Shown here in pieces: positions 7,297 through 57,514 of a stretch of DNA of 57,523 bases. Under the pieces are notes generated by a model that ran no database searches, was not told where the DNA came from, and was given only the letters and a program-made list of their open reading frames with translations. The first letter of the stretch is position 1, and every line of letters starts with the position of its first letter. Origin of the DNA: Patescibacteria group bacterium (GTDB lineage: Bacteria > Patescibacteriota > Gracilibacteria > JAHISY01); NCBI GenBank assembly GCA_043797545.1, contig JAZDPN010000073.1, positions 1-57,523 on the forward strand, read 5' to 3'. A program made the translations under genes and the position numbers.

Positions 7297-7371
7297 GGCC
7301 CCGTAGTTCAATGGATAGAACAATTCCGTCCTAAGGAAGAAATGTAGGTTCGATTCCTGCCGGGGCCACCA
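7297..7371 (+). tRNA. tRNA-Arg (anticodon CCT), CCA encoded
   Basis: Hand-folded cloverleaf: acceptor GGCCCCG/CGGGGCC, D stem GTTC/GAAC, anticodon loop GTCCTAA, T arm GTAGG-TTCGATT-CCTGC. Confidence 0.85.
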
Positions 7372-10880: not shown

Positions 10881-10970
10881 TGGCGGAGGGAGGGGGATTC
10901 GAACCCCCGAGGCAGTTGCCCGCCTACCCGCTTTCCAAGCGAGCGCACTCGGCCACTATGCGATCCCTCC
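10881..10970 (-). tRNA. tRNA-Ser (anticodon GGA), long variable arm, CCA encoded
   Basis: The reverse complement folds with acceptor GGAGGGA/TCCCTCC, anticodon loop TTGGAAA, an extra arm GGCGGGCAACTGCC, and T arm GGGGG-TTCGAAT-CCCCC. Confidence 0.85.
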
Positions 10971-42592: not shown

Positions 42593-42669
42593 TGGTGCGC
42601 CCGGCAGGATTCGAACCTGCAACCCCCGGTTCCGAAGACCAGTGCTCTATCCAGTTGAGCCACGGGCGC
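42593..42669 (-). tRNA. tRNA-Arg (anticodon TCG), CCA encoded
   Basis: The reverse complement folds with acceptor GCGCCCG/CGGGCGC, D arm GCTCAACTGGATAGAGC, anticodon loop CTTCGGA, and T arm GCAGG-TTCGAAT-CCTGC. Confidence 0.85.
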
Positions 42670-52898: not shown

Positions 52899-53096
52899 CG
52901 GATTGATTTAAATCTGGCTAACTTTAGCGCTTCCGGCTTAAAAATTGAAGTCAAAAGAATTTGAAGTTAAACTCAATCATCCAAAGCATCCATTCGCAAC
53001 CCCATTTTGATTGATTCCTGACGCCAAAGCTGATATATTGGGGGTTGTCGCTAAAACAAACACAATATATTGGGTTTCTTTAATTTCCCACCCCAG

Positions 53097-55211
53097 ATGG
53101 CCGCCCACAAAATTCAGAAACGCAACGGTGCAATTGTTGACTTCGACATCGCCAAGATCGAGAAAGCGATTTTTGCGGCCGCGAAGGCGGCTGGTGGGAG
53201 TGATTTGGCTGAAGCGAAAAGACTGGCGAATCAGGTTGTAGCCGAACTGGAAAAAGAAGACAAAGTTCCAACCGTCGAAGAAGTTCAAGACTTGGTTGAA
53301 AAAATTCTAGTTCGCGCCGGCCATCCGACAACCGCGAAGGTCTATATTCTTTACCGGGAGAAACGCGCCGAGGCGCGCGCTGACCGCGATGTCGTCGTCG
53401 AGGTCGAAAAGACAATGTCCGAATATTTGAACCGTCTTGATTGGCGGGTAAACGCGAATTCGAATCAGGGTTATTCTCTTGGCGGCATGATTCTGAATAC
53501 CGCCGGGAAAGTGACCGCGAATTACTGGCTCTCGCACATTTATCCAAAAAATGTCGGCGACGCGCACCGCAACGGCGATTATCATATTCACGATCTCGAC
53601 ATGTTCTCGGGCTACTGCGCTGGTTGGTCGCTGCGCGCGCTGCTCGAAGAGGGCTTCAACGGTTTAATGGGTAAAACTGAATCACACCCGCCGAAACATT
53701 TGTCATCCGCGGTTTCACAAATGGTCAACTTCCTTGGTTCGCTCCAAAACGAGTGGGCAGGCGCGCAAGCGTTCAGCTCGTTCGACACCTATCTTGCGCC
53801 TTTCGTCAAAAAATATGCTCTCGAGGTCGAAGAAGCGATCGAAAAAACCGGAGCGCAGTTCGAGACGCCCGAGGCGCGCCAAAGCTACATCGACCGCAAG
53901 ACCTACAACTACGTTTACCAAAACGTCCAATCTTTCGTTTTTAACCTCAATGTTCCGAGTCGCTGGGGGACACAAACACCCTTTACGAATGTCACACTGG
54001 ATTGGGTTTGCCCGGCCGATTTACGCGAGAAAAGACTACAGCTTGGCGGCCAACCCTTCGAATTTAAATTTGGCGAACTCGAAAAAGAAATGGCGATCCT
54101 CAACCGCGCCTTCATCGAAGTCATGACGGCTGGCGACGCGCGCGGCCGCGTTTTCACTTTCCCGATTCCGACCTACAACATCACGCCAGACTTCGACTGG
54201 GACGGCGAAAATACAGATCTGCTTTTCGAAATGACGGCAAAATATGGCATGCCCTATTTCCAAAACTTCATTAATTCCGACCTCAACCCGGGGGATGTAC
54301 GCTCGATGTGTTGCCGGCTGCAGCTCGACCTCAACGAGCTAAAAAAACGCGGCAATGGTCTCTTTGGCTCGGCCGAGATGACAGGCTCGATCGGGGTCGT
54401 CACTATCAATTCTGCGCGCATCGGCTACAACTCAAAAGGTGACAAGCAGAAGCTGCTTGACAGGATTGGTCACCTCATGGAGCTGGCCAAGACCTCGCTC
54501 GAAATCAAACGCAAAGAAATTCAAAAATGGATTGATCGAGGCCTCTTTCCTTTCACCAAGCGATATCTTGGCCACCTCAACAATCATTTCTCCACGATCG
54601 GCGTCAACGGTGTGAACGAGTGCGTTCTCAATTTTTCCAGCGGTAAATACGACATCGCCTCGCCGGAAGGTCGGCAGCTCGCGATCGATATTCTCGACTT
54701 CATGCGTTCCAAGCTGACCGAATTCCAAAACGAGACCGGCAACCTTTACAATCTCGAAGCGACGCCGGCCGAGGGGACGACTTACCGCTTCGCGAAAGAA
54801 GATCGCAAGCGCTATCCAGATATTATTCAGGCTGGCACGACCGAGGCGCCCTACTACACGAATTCTTCTCAGCTGCCAGTCGAATACACTGACGATGCCT
54901 TCGCGGCGCTAGAACATCAGGACGATTTGCAAAAAATGTACACCGGCGGGACGGTCCTCCACCTCTACATGGGCGAGCGGATTTCCGACTCCGTTGCCTG
55001 CAAAAATCTCGTGCGCAAGGTGCTGACTAATTTCCGTTTACCCTACATTACGATTACGCCAACCTTTTCGATTTGTCCCAAGCACGGCTATCTGGCCGGA
55101 GAGCACGATTTCTGTCCGCTCTGCGATGAGGAAATCGGCTATGATGGGTCCGACCGCGACTCCGAGCTGCGCGAACAATTCATTTCCTCGGCAGCCAAAC
55201 AAAAGCTGTAA
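53097..55211 (+). CDS. nrdD: Anaerobic (class III) ribonucleoside-triphosphate reductase, large part without the glycyl-radical loop
   Basis: N-terminal ATP-cone, catalytic barrel motifs, and C-terminal zinc-ribbon cysteines ICPKHG...FCPLC. A stop codon comes before any RxxGY motif. Confidence 0.85.
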   Translation: MAAHKIQKRNGAIVDFDIAKIEKAIFAAAKAAGGSDLAEAKRLANQVVAELEKEDKVPTVEEVQDLVEKILVRAGHPTTAKVYILYREKRAEARADRDVVVEVEKTMSEYLNRLDWRVNANSNQGYSLGGMILNTAGKVTANYWLSHIYPKNVGDAHRNGDYHIHDLDMFSGYCAGWSLRALLEEGFNGLMGKTESHPPKHLSSAVSQMVNFLGSLQNEWAGAQAFSSFDTYLAPFVKKYALEVEEAIEKTGAQFETPEARQSYIDRKTYNYVYQNVQSFVFNLNVPSRWGTQTPFTNVTLDWVCPADLREKRLQLGGQPFEFKFGELEKEMAILNRAFIEVMTAGDARGRVFTFPIPTYNITPDFDWDGENTDLLFEMTAKYGMPYFQNFINSDLNPGDVRSMCCRLQLDLNELKKRGNGLFGSAEMTGSIGVVTINSARIGYNSKGDKQKLLDRIGHLMELAKTSLEIKRKEIQKWIDRGLFPFTKRYLGHLNNHFSTIGVNGVNECVLNFSSGKYDIASPEGRQLAIDILDFMRSKLTEFQNETGNLYNLEATPAEGTTYRFAKEDRKRYPDIIQAGTTEAPYYTNSSQLPVEYTDDAFAALEHQDDLQKMYTGGTVLHLYMGERISDSVACKNLVRKVLTNFRLPYITITPTFSICPKHGYLAGEHDFCPLCDEEIGYDGSDRDSELREQFISSAAKQKL

Positions 55212-55228
55212 AATTAACCCAAGCAACT

Positions 55229-55423
55229 ATGAGCACTCAAAACTTCACCGCGAACCAAAGTTCGACCGCGACCGGACAAAAGACTAGAACACGCTGCGAA
55301 GTCTGGACGCGCGTGATGGGTTATCACCGCCCAGTTCAAAATTTTAACGTCGGCAAAAAGGCGGAACACTATTCGCGCTGCCATTTTTCTGAGGCCAAGA
55401 CTTGTGCCGCAGTTTCCAAATAA
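55229..55423 (+). CDS. Stand-alone glycyl-radical segment of NrdD (64 aa)
   Basis: CEVWTRVMGYHRPVQNFNVGKKAEHYSR corresponds to the conserved C-terminal EV.SR..GY.RPV..WN.GK..E...R glycyl-radical site. It starts 17 nt after the nrdD stop, in another frame. Confidence 0.7.
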   Translation: MSTQNFTANQSSTATGQKTRTRCEVWTRVMGYHRPVQNFNVGKKAEHYSRCHFSEAKTCAAVSK

Positions 55424-55425
55424 GT

Positions 55426-55668
55426 TTGCAGTATCTTCTTTTTACGACGACGACCTGTCCCAAGTGCCCTGCGGTTAAGAGCTTTGTTGCCGAGCAAATG
55501 CCTTTCGACGGCAGGACGCTTGACAATAGCGCACCGGATTTCGTCGCGCAGATCCAAAAGTTCGGAGTTCAAAATGCGCCGACACTGATCGTGCTCGACG
55601 ACGCGAATCAAGAAATTTTTCGGGGGAATGAGGTTGCGGAGATTGAGGAATTTTTGAACAGAAAGTAA
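55426..55668 (+). CDS. Thioredoxin/NrdH-like small redoxin (CPKC)
   Basis: LLFTTTTCPKCPAVK...NAPTLIVLD is the thioredoxin-fold pattern. The probable TTG start is at 55426. The ORF track starts at 55402. Confidence 0.6.
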   Translation: MQYLLFTTTTCPKCPAVKSFVAEQMPFDGRTLDNSAPDFVAQIQKFGVQNAPTLIVLDDANQEIFRGNEVAEIEEFLNRK

Positions 55669-55728
55669 ATCGCTGTTTTCTCGCTGTCGCGAGGACGCTG
55701 CTTTTTTGGCGGCAAAATTGCCGATCGT

Positions 55729-55757
55729 GTAGGGGCGGGTTTTAAACCCGCCCCTAC
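55729..55757. repeat. Perfect GC-rich palindrome GTAGGGGCGGGTTTTAAACCCGCCCCTAC (REP-like)
   Basis: Stem of 11-14 bp. Two further palindromes follow at 55821-55836 (CCTGTC GGCA GACAGG) and 55869-55885 (GCGCGGC TTTG CCGCGC). Confidence 0.85.
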
Positions 55758-55914
55758 ATTTCGCCCGTCGACCGCTGATGCAAAATTCTACGAATTTTTC
55801 CACGCAGACTCGCAAGCCTGCCTGTCGGCAGACAGGTCGCCGCCCCAATTTTTTCGAATGGCTGGAAAGCGCGGCTTTGCCGCGCCCTCTCCAAAAATTC
55901 TGTAAAATTCAGCA

Positions 55915-56637
55915 ATGCAAATCGCTGCGCTGCAAAAACTTACGCTTTTGGATTTTCCCGGTCGGACGGCCTGCACGGTTTTCACGCTCGGCTGCAATTT
56001 TCGCTGCGGCTTTTGTCACAATCCCGAATTAGTTTTGCCGGAAAAATTTCCCAAATTAATTCTCGAAGAAAAATTTTTCGAATTTCTTGATCGCCGCAAA
56101 GGCTTACTCGACGGCGTATGCATCACGGGCGGTGAGCCGACTTTGCAAAAAGATTTACTCGAATTCTGTAAAAAAATTCGCAAGCGCGGTTTCACGGTGA
56201 AGCTCGATACGAACGGTTCGCAGCCGGAAATTTTGGAAAAACTTTTTCGCGCGGGTTTACTCGACTATGTCGCGCTGGACATCAAAGCGTCGCCGGAAAA
56301 TTATTCCAAAATTGCGGGCGTCGACCAACCTTCGCCAAGGCTACGGCAGGCAAGTATTTTCGAAAAAGTGCGCGCCTCCAAAAATTTGATCGCGCAGTCG
56401 GGTGTCGAATACGAACTGCGCACGACCGTGATTCGCGAATTGCACGATGAAAAAGAATTACAAAAAATTCTTGAATTCATCCGCGGTGCGCCAAAATATT
56501 TTCTCCAAAATTTTTCCAATCGCGGCGGTTGTCTCAATCCGGCTTTCGAAAAACTGCACGGCTTCACGAATTCTGAATTGGAAAAAATGTGCGAGCGTGC
56601 GCGTGAGTTTGTGGGGGAGTGCGGAATTCGAAATTAA
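55915..56637 (+). CDS. nrdG: Anaerobic ribonucleotide reductase activating protein (radical SAM)
   Basis: GCNFRCGFCHNP cluster motif and GGEPTL. Confidence 0.85.
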   Translation: MQIAALQKLTLLDFPGRTACTVFTLGCNFRCGFCHNPELVLPEKFPKLILEEKFFEFLDRRKGLLDGVCITGGEPTLQKDLLEFCKKIRKRGFTVKLDTNGSQPEILEKLFRAGLLDYVALDIKASPENYSKIAGVDQPSPRLRQASIFEKVRASKNLIAQSGVEYELRTTVIRELHDEKELQKILEFIRGAPKYFLQNFSNRGGCLNPAFEKLHGFTNSELEKMCERAREFVGECGIRN

Positions 56638-56679: not shown

Positions 56680-56772
56680 CTATTTCTTCTTTTTGGCGAC
56701 CTTCTTTTTGGCCGCTTTTTTTGCCGGTTTTTTGGCAACCTTTTTTTTGGCTGCCTTCTTTTTTGCTGGCAT
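56680..56772 (-). CDS. 30-aa lysine/alanine-rich basic peptide (histone H1/HC2-like composition)
   Basis: MPAKKKAAKKKVAKKPAKKAAKKKVAKKKK. It begins at an ATG inside the longer track ORF and has a terminator just downstream. Confidence 0.35.
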   Translation of the reverse strand: MPAKKKAAKKKVAKKPAKKAAKKKVAKKKK

Positions 56773-57396
56773 TTTAAGGGGGGTTAAAGAATAAAAAAAC
56801 CTCACACGAGCTTTCGCGCGAGGAGGCCGGTTGAGTTTTGAATTTTGTAGATCAAGATATTTTTTGTGAGTGCAACTAGATTTTATTTTTTTGTAGAAGA
56901 AAGTCAATGGAAAAAAAGAATTAAAAAATTTTTATTGCGGCGAACAAAATTCATTACAGCAAAATTATTTTGAAAGAGCTGGGAAAAATTGCGGAAAAAT
57001 CTTAGCGCGAAATCCAGAATCATTTTCTAGATGTGAAATAGTATGAATTCGTCGTGATGCGTTCAGGAAAAAATTTTTGTTCCCTACAAAAAGCGCGGCC
57101 CAGGTTCTGTTTCTTTGATCATCCGCGGATTCAAAATCGGCGCAACAAAACGGGCGTGTCAAAACCCCGAAATTTATTCGGCCGAGTAAAAATAATTCTA
57201 CGATCGTCAGGTTTGCGGTGAAGACGAATCAAGCTGCACCCACTGATAAAAACTGGCAAACCAGGAGGAGGGACGAGGAAAAATTAAAATAAACGAATTC
57301 GCTTATCCGATATCCGAGAAATCCGGACAGTTCAACCCAAAAGAGGCTGGAAGGTAAAACGAGAATCAAAACTCCACACATCAAAAAGCTCCTCAG

Positions 57397-57514
57397 TCTT
57401 GGCGACGGCCTACTCTCACACACCCAGAGGATGCATTACCATCGGCGCTGGCGGGCTTAACTTCCGTGTTCGGAATGAGAACGGGTGTACCCCCACCGCT
57501 AGAGCCACCAAGAC
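57397..57514 (-). rRNA. rrf: 5S ribosomal RNA
   Basis: The reverse complement reads TCTTGGTGGCTCTAGCGGTGGGGGTACACCCGTTCTCATTCCGAACACGGAAGTTAAGCCCGCCAGCGCCGATGG...GAGAGTAGGCCGTCGCCAAGAC, with the universal CCGAAC/GAAGTTAAG core and closing helix I. Confidence 0.9.

Follow-up and report, generated by a model that had tools for sequence, protein, structure and literature searches.

To our knowledge, the radical glycine is carried on the catalytic chain itself in all characterised class III ribonucleotide reductases (RNRs), which produce the building blocks of DNA in the absence of oxygen, and in all glycyl-radical enzymes, with the exception of pyruvate formate-lyase (PFL) when it is repaired by the small protein GrcA. 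Here we analyze a locus in a contig of a Patescibacteria group bacterium (JAZDPN010000073.1; the whole stretch of 57,523 nucleotides (nt) is referred to as the window) where the gene for the class III catalytic subunit, nrdD, ends before the glycyl-radical loop and the loop is encoded by a separate gene for a peptide of 64 amino acids (aa). An original prediction, made from the letters of the window alone, had offered two interpretations, namely a genuine split with the radical-bearing loop acting in trans or a broken gene. Our best reading is that the locus encodes a naturally heteromeric class III RNR of subclass NrdDh, and we assign a probability of roughly 80% to the peptide being its obligatory radical subunit, with a function in trans that we infer from sequence. 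This two-piece design is apparently undescribed and is kept across many ultra-small bacteria, some archaea and phages.

The canonical NrdDh/NrdD2 enzymes of T. maritima (4COI, 4U3E) and N. bacilliformis, together with NrdG, share with the window locus the ATP-cone, the barrel, the (S/M)CCR motif, the Cys/His...CxxC zinc (Zn) ribbon, the RVxGY loop, an NrdG2-type activase and a thiol redoxin partner (PMC4493059). In the solved NrdD structures the last barrel strand is followed by the Zn ribbon and then by the C-terminal loop, which dips into the barrel; the radical glycine is buried there and must leave the barrel for activation (PMC4493059). Unlike in these enzymes, the loop in the window is a separate gene product, the chain being cut between the Zn ribbon and the loop with ~45 variable residues at the new ends. 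The cut is exactly at the boundary between the Zn-ribbon and Gly-loop domains.

One precedent for a stand-alone radical protein is Y06I of phage T4, an autonomous glycyl-radical spare part for PFL. Another is GrcA (YfiD) of E. coli, a small stand-alone protein whose N-terminus is disordered and whose glycyl-radical hairpin serves the large PFL barrel subunit in trans and is activated by the cognate radical S-adenosylmethionine (SAM) activase (PMC13450708, PMC8683613). The original prediction had likened the window peptide to GrcA, and the analogy stands as far as the small stand-alone protein and its apparently disordered N-terminus are concerned. There are differences in two other respects: GrcA shares homology with the C-terminus of PFL, the window peptide being of the NrdD type, and PFL keeps its own loop, which GrcA replaces after oxygen damage, whereas the large subunit in the window has no loop. 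According to a 2026 review, spare-part proteins are known only for formate lyases.

There are also RNRs with a catalytic chain spread over two consecutive open reading frames (ORFs), as in the window. In the split class II enzyme NrdJa/NrdJb (Pseudomonas aeruginosa; Thermus phage phiYS40) the products of both ORFs must assemble (PMC9669993, citing Crona 2015; PMC3653736). This enzyme differs from the window locus in belonging to the adenosylcobalamin class and in its cut point, and NrdJb carries IscU-like and Zn-finger domains rather than the radical site. Mobile elements have fragmented other reductase genes that are nevertheless functional, including the NrdA "genes-in-pieces" of Aeromonas phage Aeh1 and phage nrdD genes interrupted by introns or inteins (PMC3045599, PMC3653736). 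The unrelated gene found between the two parts in two of the loci described below (L003 and L001) is reminiscent of such interruptions, but the latter are lineage-specific and mended by splicing or by interaction domains derived from mobile elements, whereas the split in the window is ancient, widespread and located at a domain boundary. In class I RNRs, the radical is stored on a polypeptide apart from the catalytic subunit. That polypeptide, beta, is a ferritin-like metalloprotein with long-distance radical transfer, whereas the 34-residue loop of the window peptide would insert directly into the active site. Full-text literature searches, whose coverage was incomplete so that a prior mention (for example in RNRdb notes) is possible, did not turn up any account of an NrdD that is split and has its radical peptide encoded separately.

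The large gene is located on the forward strand at positions 53097..55211, from ATG 53097 to TAA 55209-55211, and encodes 704 aa; the ORF is already open from a TTG at 53070, upstream of this ATG. Its product matches positions 2-529 of 562 of Pfam NRDD (PF13597; E 9e-177, 589.6 bits, cut-off 26.2), positions 1-650 of 684 of NCBIfam NF006126 (1087.7 bits, cut-off 548) and TIGR02487 (459 bits, cut-off 326), and a sequence search of the PDB matched it to the NrdD entries 8p23, 4coi, 4u3e, 9d3x and 1h78. The ATP-cone occupies aa 5-91 (PF03477, E 4.7e-22), and the SMCCR finger-loop motif in the barrel lies at aa 403-407 (54303-54317). Among large subunits (alignment A6), C174, C405 and C406 are conserved, while S403, M404, C406 and R407 are invariant and C405 nearly so. 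An SCCR motif that is found upstream of the finger loop marks the RNRdb subclass NrdDh, which takes in the T. maritima enzyme and that of N. bacilliformis, which depends on thioredoxin, and an MCCR variant occurs in group NrdDh4 (PMC4493059). The best reading of the SMCCR motif, the sole basis for the subclass assignment, is that the large subunit belongs to subclass NrdDh.

The Zn ribbon (CPKH...CPLC, aa 660-676, 55074-55124) follows the pattern C660-P-K-H663...C673-P-L-C676, which is kept across alignments A3 and A6; the corresponding pattern in the T. maritima enzyme is CxxxHx6CxxC (PMC4493059). All four Zn-ribbon residues, C660, H663, C673 and C676, sit in the large ORF, in agreement with the original prediction that nrdD stops at 55211 after the zinc-ribbon cysteines. 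The ORF has no RVxGY glycyl-radical loop and ends at position 529 of the 562 positions of the NRDD profile. After the Zn ribbon there is a 28-aa tail (aa 677-704, 55125-55208), which after CPxCD is semi-conserved in the clade as E-[IL]-G-[YF]-x-G-x3-D-x-E-x-R-x2-[YF]-x-S. We considered the tail as a degenerate radical loop, given that MAFFT repeatedly placed EIGYDGSDRDSELREQF on VMGYHRPV..FN.GK..EH..R.HF of fused forms, and rejected it: hhalign of the tail profile against the peptide-core profile gave no support for homology (probability 0.06, E 0.71).

The missing loop is found on the 64-aa ORF at 55229..55423 on the same strand, which starts with ATG in a frame that differs from that of the large ORF. 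Its product matches NRDD positions 532-562 of 562 (E 1.1e-7, 31.4 bits, cut-off 26.2) as well as four NCBIfam NrdD models over their last 30-40 positions, and contains the motif TRVMGYHRPVQNFNVGKKAEHYSR with the glycyl-radical loop RVMGY. The NRDD profile is thus divided in a complementary manner, with positions 2-529 on the large ORF and 532-562 on the peptide, which speaks for the heteromeric interpretation. PF13597 is the sole Pfam match of the peptide, with no match to the PFL-type Gly_radical family (PF01228); neither Pfam nor NCBIfam holds a peptide-specific model, and PHROGs assigns the peptide to phrog_4132, "unknown function". PDB sequence searches with the peptide or its profile gave no match, the query being too short.

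Both ends of the peptide are variable, the N-terminal one spanning aa 1-19; the core between them runs from R20 to F53 (55286-55387) and includes C23 (55295-55297) as well as G31 (55319-55321), the radical glycine. In an alignment of 28 diverse peptides (A1), 25 of the 34 core columns are invariant, including R28-V-M-G31-Y32, while both ends vary freely. Across 83 loci the nucleotide diversity of the core at codon positions 1, 2 and 3 is 0.168, 0.097 and 0.587, respectively, and 75% of the codon differences are synonymous; the core is evidently under strong purifying selection. Ahead of the core comes an unconserved segment of 3-43 residues (median 15) in which T, Q, A and S are abundant; its composition and a predicted local distance difference test (pLDDT) score below 50 suggest that it is disordered. 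A cysteine at -3 of the EVW strand (counted from the W/Y of the first hairpin strand; C23 in the window) is present in 119 of 119 stand-alone peptides compared to 17 of 46 fused representatives, a count that carries little statistical weight because the 119 peptides are closely related.

The spacer between the two genes, read from the sequence, is 17 nt long (55212..55228), and the frame of the large ORF meets three in-frame stop codons (TAA, TAA, TGA) before 55229. The junction holds ~45 extra, variable residues rich in T, Q, A and S relative to PDB NrdDs and to a fused relative described below (P0187), whose junction reads CEECGSVCEVWTRVMGY where the window has CPLC followed by the 28-aa tail and, on the peptide, a 19-aa head followed by RTRCEVWTRVMGY. 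The insertion-like, low-complexity junction noted in the original prediction is therefore confirmed, and the other features that it described were likewise found at the positions it gave. It need not be long, as in locus L068 the two junction pieces are merely 5 and 4 residues (the large ORF ends CPKCDKELE and the peptide starts MTTKQRTKCEVW). No terminator-like site was found in a scan of the 17-nt spacer. The frame of the peptide is open for 67 nt upstream of the stop of the large ORF, and this zone, open in both frames, contains no slippery heptamer of the form X XXY YYZ.

The original prediction had suggested a survey of orthologs in related genomes, and homologues of both parts were compared. 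A search of a collection of 5.8 billion proteins detected 2167 homologues of the peptide. The best 120 of the 2167 are all stand-alone proteins of 53-93 aa and come from Peregrinibacteria/Peribacteria, Gracilibacteria, Magasanikbacteria, Moranbacteria and Pacebacteria; some of them sit on contigs of 1.5-1.8 Mb. Conversely, 119 of the 120 nearest homologues of the large subunit (71-93% identity) end after the Zn ribbon without RVxGY. In a species scan using one genome per GTDB species, 80 loci were found at 63-93% identity, one of them cut by the contig end, and a separate peptide ORF is present in all 79 evaluable loci (Peribacteria, Gracilibacteria, Moranbacteria and Magasanikbacteria). Overall, the split is seen across hundreds of independent assemblies.

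The arrangement of the two genes was compared in 85 loci (the 80 GTDB loci, four others and the window). The peptide is encoded in frame +0, +1 and +2 relative to the large gene in 21, 30 and 34 loci, respectively, and the distance between the genes (median ~36 nt) ranges from overlaps of 4-17 nt up to a gap of 1086 nt. Several genomes have 0.4-1.1 kb between the large and peptide genes, with inserted unrelated genes such as one for a 348-aa protein with an Abi_C domain (L003:3920-4966) and one for an unknown 215-aa protein (L001:4274-4921), and in one locus the order is reversed with the peptide gene located 5' of the large gene (L021:625-2945). We regard it as close to certain, on these comparisons, that the split is genuine and conserved and represents neither an error nor a broken gene.

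The sole fused protein among the 120 nearest large-subunit homologues, P0187 (L203:255-2735; 826 aa, 75% identity to the large subunit of the window), combines NrdD, the radical loop, a linker and a thioredoxin-like redoxin domain in one chain. Its domain order is the same as the gene order in the window, and nrdG and feoAB follow. The matches to the P0187 C-terminus were all short pieces of fused NrdDs, a result that is silent on how frequent fusion is among close relatives. At larger distances, 150 NrdDs with 43-69% identity to the large subunit were listed from a set of 1.84 billion cluster representatives; 77 of these are split (loop-less), 55 are fused and the other 18 escaped classification. 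Fused and split forms are interspersed, with ~18 parsimony changes, in a rough and weak neighbour-joining tree from a 250-residue segment, which is no more than a hint at repeated fission, fusion or transfer. As a separate observation, this branch of NrdDs (P0241-P0390) is rich in inteins: many of its proteins are 1000-1879 aa long, match in 3-6 separate stretches and contain LAGLIDADG or Intein_splicing domains.

The split extends beyond these bacteria, and the cut is not always at the same place. In a Nanoarchaeota metagenome-assembled genome (MAG; L087:8300-8519), the large gene ends ...EHHTCPHMNNGG (...HTCPHMNNGG) and the next gene starts MENNEKCNKETEVYSRIVGYFRP (MENNEKCNKETEVYSRIVGY). Relative to the fused ...EHHTCPTCGKETEVYSRVVGY, the chain is interrupted within the second Zn knuckle, and the fourth cysteine is on the peptide, which would therefore complete the Zn site. 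This peptide gene is preceded by GGAGG and followed by nrdG. The large subunit of the same locus has an NrdR-type Zn ribbon at its N-terminus as well as inteins. A bacterial contig of 1.65 Mb (L089) shows a third junction type. The cysteine count given above and the Zn-knuckle cysteine on the Nanoarchaeota peptide make it plausible that the invariant Cys23 anchors the peptide via a metal or a disulfide.

Eight of 31 NrdD loci on viral contigs are split, three are cut by the contig end and the remaining ones are fused; on one phage-like contig the peptide gene lies 2.4 kb upstream of the large gene (L090). In addition, 78 of the best 80 peptide matches on viral contigs of IMG/VR (L093-L172) are stand-alone ORFs of 50-70 aa without an NrdD barrel gene within +-5 kb, one of which (L118:5001-5171) is located between a DUF1643 gene and an integrase gene with a lysozyme gene nearby. 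These ORFs may represent a phage-borne spare radical peptide for the NrdD of the host. A 38-aa core segment of the peptide had no tblastn match at E <= 1e-3 in 50,697 deposited phage genomes, whereas IMG/VR did match. The opposite situation occurs at L091:3001-5178, where a 725-aa loop-less NrdD with a coiled-coil-like tail (EEQQKEYERKLKEIDARIEELYKNQ) has no peptide gene within 3 kb.

AlphaFold2 (AF2) models were built for two constructs. When the large subunit and the peptide were simply concatenated, the large part was modelled with a mean pLDDT of 82.5 and a predicted TM score (pTM) of 0.77. The second, re-fused construct joined residues 1-676 of the large subunit to residues 20-64 of the peptide, using an alignment that included fused homologues and stand-alone peptides. 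Here the radical segment reached pLDDT 77-95 and formed a beta-hairpin (strands E681-686/E689-692) with the glycine at its tip, followed by helices, again with a pTM of 0.77. Foldseek ranks 1-36 in the PDB for this model are all class III RNRs, with target-normalised TM scores of 0.6-0.8, in agreement with the ten-stranded alpha/beta barrel of solved NrdDs. The model shows the two parts of the window to be compatible, as predicted folds, with the canonical NrdD architecture.

The data need to be weighed against several other explanations. Both ORFs are merely 17 nt apart in different frames, the window comes from an uncultured organism and its closest relatives are all MAGs, which would be in keeping with a sequencing or assembly frameshift or stop, or recent pseudogenisation, in an ordinary nrdD. 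The two-gene state in 119 of the 120 nearest homologues and in every evaluable species representative, the strong constraint on both parts, and the ~45 extra junction residues, which are not a single indel, speak against such a disruption. So do the varied arrangements in relatives (every frame relation, gaps of up to ~1 kb, inserted genes and one reversed order). We consider the error or broken-gene alternative excluded; in our judgement it is already refuted by the comparative data, and together with the purifying selection on the peptide core they leave it a negligible probability. Of the two interpretations in the original prediction, it is the real split that the survey of relatives bears out. 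A single polypeptide could still be made from two ORFs by a programmed -1 frameshift, ribosomal bypassing or trans-splicing of a split intein. A -1 shift within the 67-nt zone of open overlap would fuse both ORFs, and the NrdD family is unusually rich in inteins. Against recoding stand the lack of a slippery heptamer in that zone and the occurrence of three frames, of parts lying as far as 1086 nt from each other with entire genes interposed, and of one reversed order; because the arrangements in relatives are so varied, no single mechanism such as frameshifting, read-through or bypassing fits. For a split intein we looked for N- and C-terminal halves flanking the break, together ~130 aa or more and with splicing blocks; there is no intein Pfam match, and the junction pieces are variable and, with lengths as small as in L068, too short for intein halves. 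We therefore consider production of one polypeptide to be very improbable.

Two further explanations accept the split and differ in the role of the peptide. The peptide could be a facultative, GrcA-like spare or regulator for a full-length NrdD encoded elsewhere or, in episymbionts and phages, for a host NrdD, with the loop-less protein working differently or not at all. This is in line with the 78 viral loci that have no barrel gene nearby, one of them adjoining an integrase, with the precedent of GrcA for PFL (PMC13450708) and with the fact that only 57 kb of the genome is visible. By contrast, cellular peptide genes almost always directly adjoin a loop-less large gene and nrdG, and catalytic cysteines, Zn ribbon and ATP-cone are all still present in the large subunit and highly conserved, which is hard to explain if it were unable to receive a radical. 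A facultative role thus seems unlikely, and we prefer to see the peptide as an obligatory subunit rather than a spare because its large partner has no radical loop of its own. The remaining possibility is that the large subunit takes its radical from elsewhere or has a function other than that of an RNR, and that the peptide gene is a decaying relic. The loop-less NrdD of L091 with no peptide gene within 3 kb fits this notion, and nothing speaks for it directly; few segments of the locus are as conserved as the peptide core (25 invariant columns; diversity of 0.587 at third versus 0.097 at second codon positions) and nrdG is retained beside the peptide gene, making a relic highly improbable.

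Several points weigh against an obligatory two-chain enzyme. Synthesis, activation and binding of the peptide are known only by inference from sequence, and with 57 kb of the genome in view a second full-length nrdD may be present elsewhere. No Shine-Dalgarno motif precedes the peptide gene in loci from candidate phyla radiation (CPR) bacteria, where the leaders are A/T-rich, and none is found just upstream of the nrdD and nrdG start codons in the window; among the loci inspected, only L087 and L089 have a Shine-Dalgarno sequence before the peptide gene. AF2 left the peptide undocked and below pLDDT 50 in the plain concatenation, a placement that is uninformative because the peptide columns had no alignment depth. 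The re-fused model is artificial and its alignment contained fused homologues, such that it speaks for compatibility and not for assembly in trans, and the finger loop is of low confidence in both models.

The genes next to the split nrdD agree with an anaerobic reductase cluster, and the retention of nrdG and a redoxin asserted in the original prediction is borne out. The gene for a thioredoxin/glutaredoxin-like redoxin with a CPKC motif (55402..55668, forward strand) starts at TTG 55402 or, with greater probability, three nt past the stop codon of the peptide gene at TTG 55426. The redoxin matches Pfam Thioredoxin_3 (E 9e-6, 26.0 bits, cut-off 24.8), falls just under the cut-off for Pfam Glutaredoxin (E 1e-4, 22.8 bits, cut-off 22.9) and has weak NCBIfam redoxin matches. 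After a 246-nt spacer, nrdG (55915..56637, forward strand) encodes a radical-SAM activase of 240 aa, which matches Pfam Radical_SAM and Fer4_12 and the NCBIfam NrdG2 equivalog TIGR02495 (210.9 bits, cut-off 131) and has CNFRCGFC at aa 27-34. The spacer contains a terminator-like hairpin (55678-55695, forward strand) and a perfect palindrome in which two arms of 15 nt flank a 1-nt centre (TGTAGGGGCGGGTTT/AAACCCGCCCCTACA, 55728-55758).

Upstream of nrdD, a consensus scan detected a promoter-like site on the forward strand (TTGATT-17-TATATT, 53011-53039). Between this site and the nrdD start codon lies an NrdR-box-like palindrome (ACACAATATATTGGGT, 53060-53075, forward strand) with 1 mismatch, which is the single match in the window (0.07 expected by chance); a second, much weaker NrdR-like box was read from the sequence 31 bp upstream. 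From these matches we infer that the palindrome regulates the nrdD cluster. Further 5', on the opposite strand, is a 920-aa ORF that we take to be secA, a name given from its sequence only. Other features of the window include a small Lys/Ala-rich ORF on the reverse strand (56680-56907) that ends in MPAKKKAAKKKVAKKPAKKAAKKKVAKKKK and has a promoter-like site at 56907-56880 and a hairpin with a T-run at 56823-56800, a 5S rRNA gene on the reverse strand at the window edge (57397-57512; Rfam, 85.9 bits), and three tRNA genes (7297-7368, 10884-10970 and 42596-42669).

With nrdG and the redoxin gene in one cluster with both parts of nrdD, the heteromeric enzyme that we propose would work as follows. 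The genes of the cluster would be transcribed together from the putative NrdR-controlled promoter, and the large subunit and the peptide would be translated separately. NrdG, a radical-SAM enzyme, would take a hydrogen atom from G31 while the peptide is free or while it is bound at the Zn ribbon, and the hairpin bearing G31 would then enter the barrel beside the cysteine loop to start thiyl-radical catalysis. By analogy with the thioredoxin-dependent NrdDh/NrdD2 enzymes, the adjacent redoxin probably supplies electrons and would re-reduce the active-site cysteines. If oxygen cleaved the chain at the radical glycine, only the 7-kDa peptide would need replacing. A bolder version, which we put forward tentatively and at clearly less than even odds, is that the peptide is a free, exchangeable "radical cartridge" that would be activated by NrdG off the enzyme, dock via the Zn ribbon where it would be anchored by the invariant cysteine or, in Nanoarchaeota, by the fourth knuckle cysteine, and be swapped after oxygen damage; phages would then carry the cartridge alone for the anaerobic deoxyribonucleoside triphosphate supply of the host.

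Annotation pipelines label both pieces "anaerobic ribonucleoside-triphosphate reductase", and phrog_4132 is listed with unknown function; the enzyme may therefore be taken for truncated or duplicated when metabolism is reconstructed. For the enzymology of the family, a natural and widely conserved two-chain enzyme would help with the question of how the activase gains access to a glycine buried inside the barrel, in that the substrate of the activase would be a peptide of 7 kDa, which can be produced, labelled and activated on its own. Oxic/anoxic interfaces are a frequent habitat of CPR bacteria and DPANN archaea, and in these organisms the split suggests a cheap repair strategy for an essential enzyme that is sensitive to oxygen; the viral peptide genes point to a possible new class of phage auxiliary genes. 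Were the peptide indeed an exchangeable cartridge, class III RNR would gain an alpha/beta logic like that of class I, and the split would represent a way in which ultra-small symbionts and their viruses have adapted to fluctuating oxygen.

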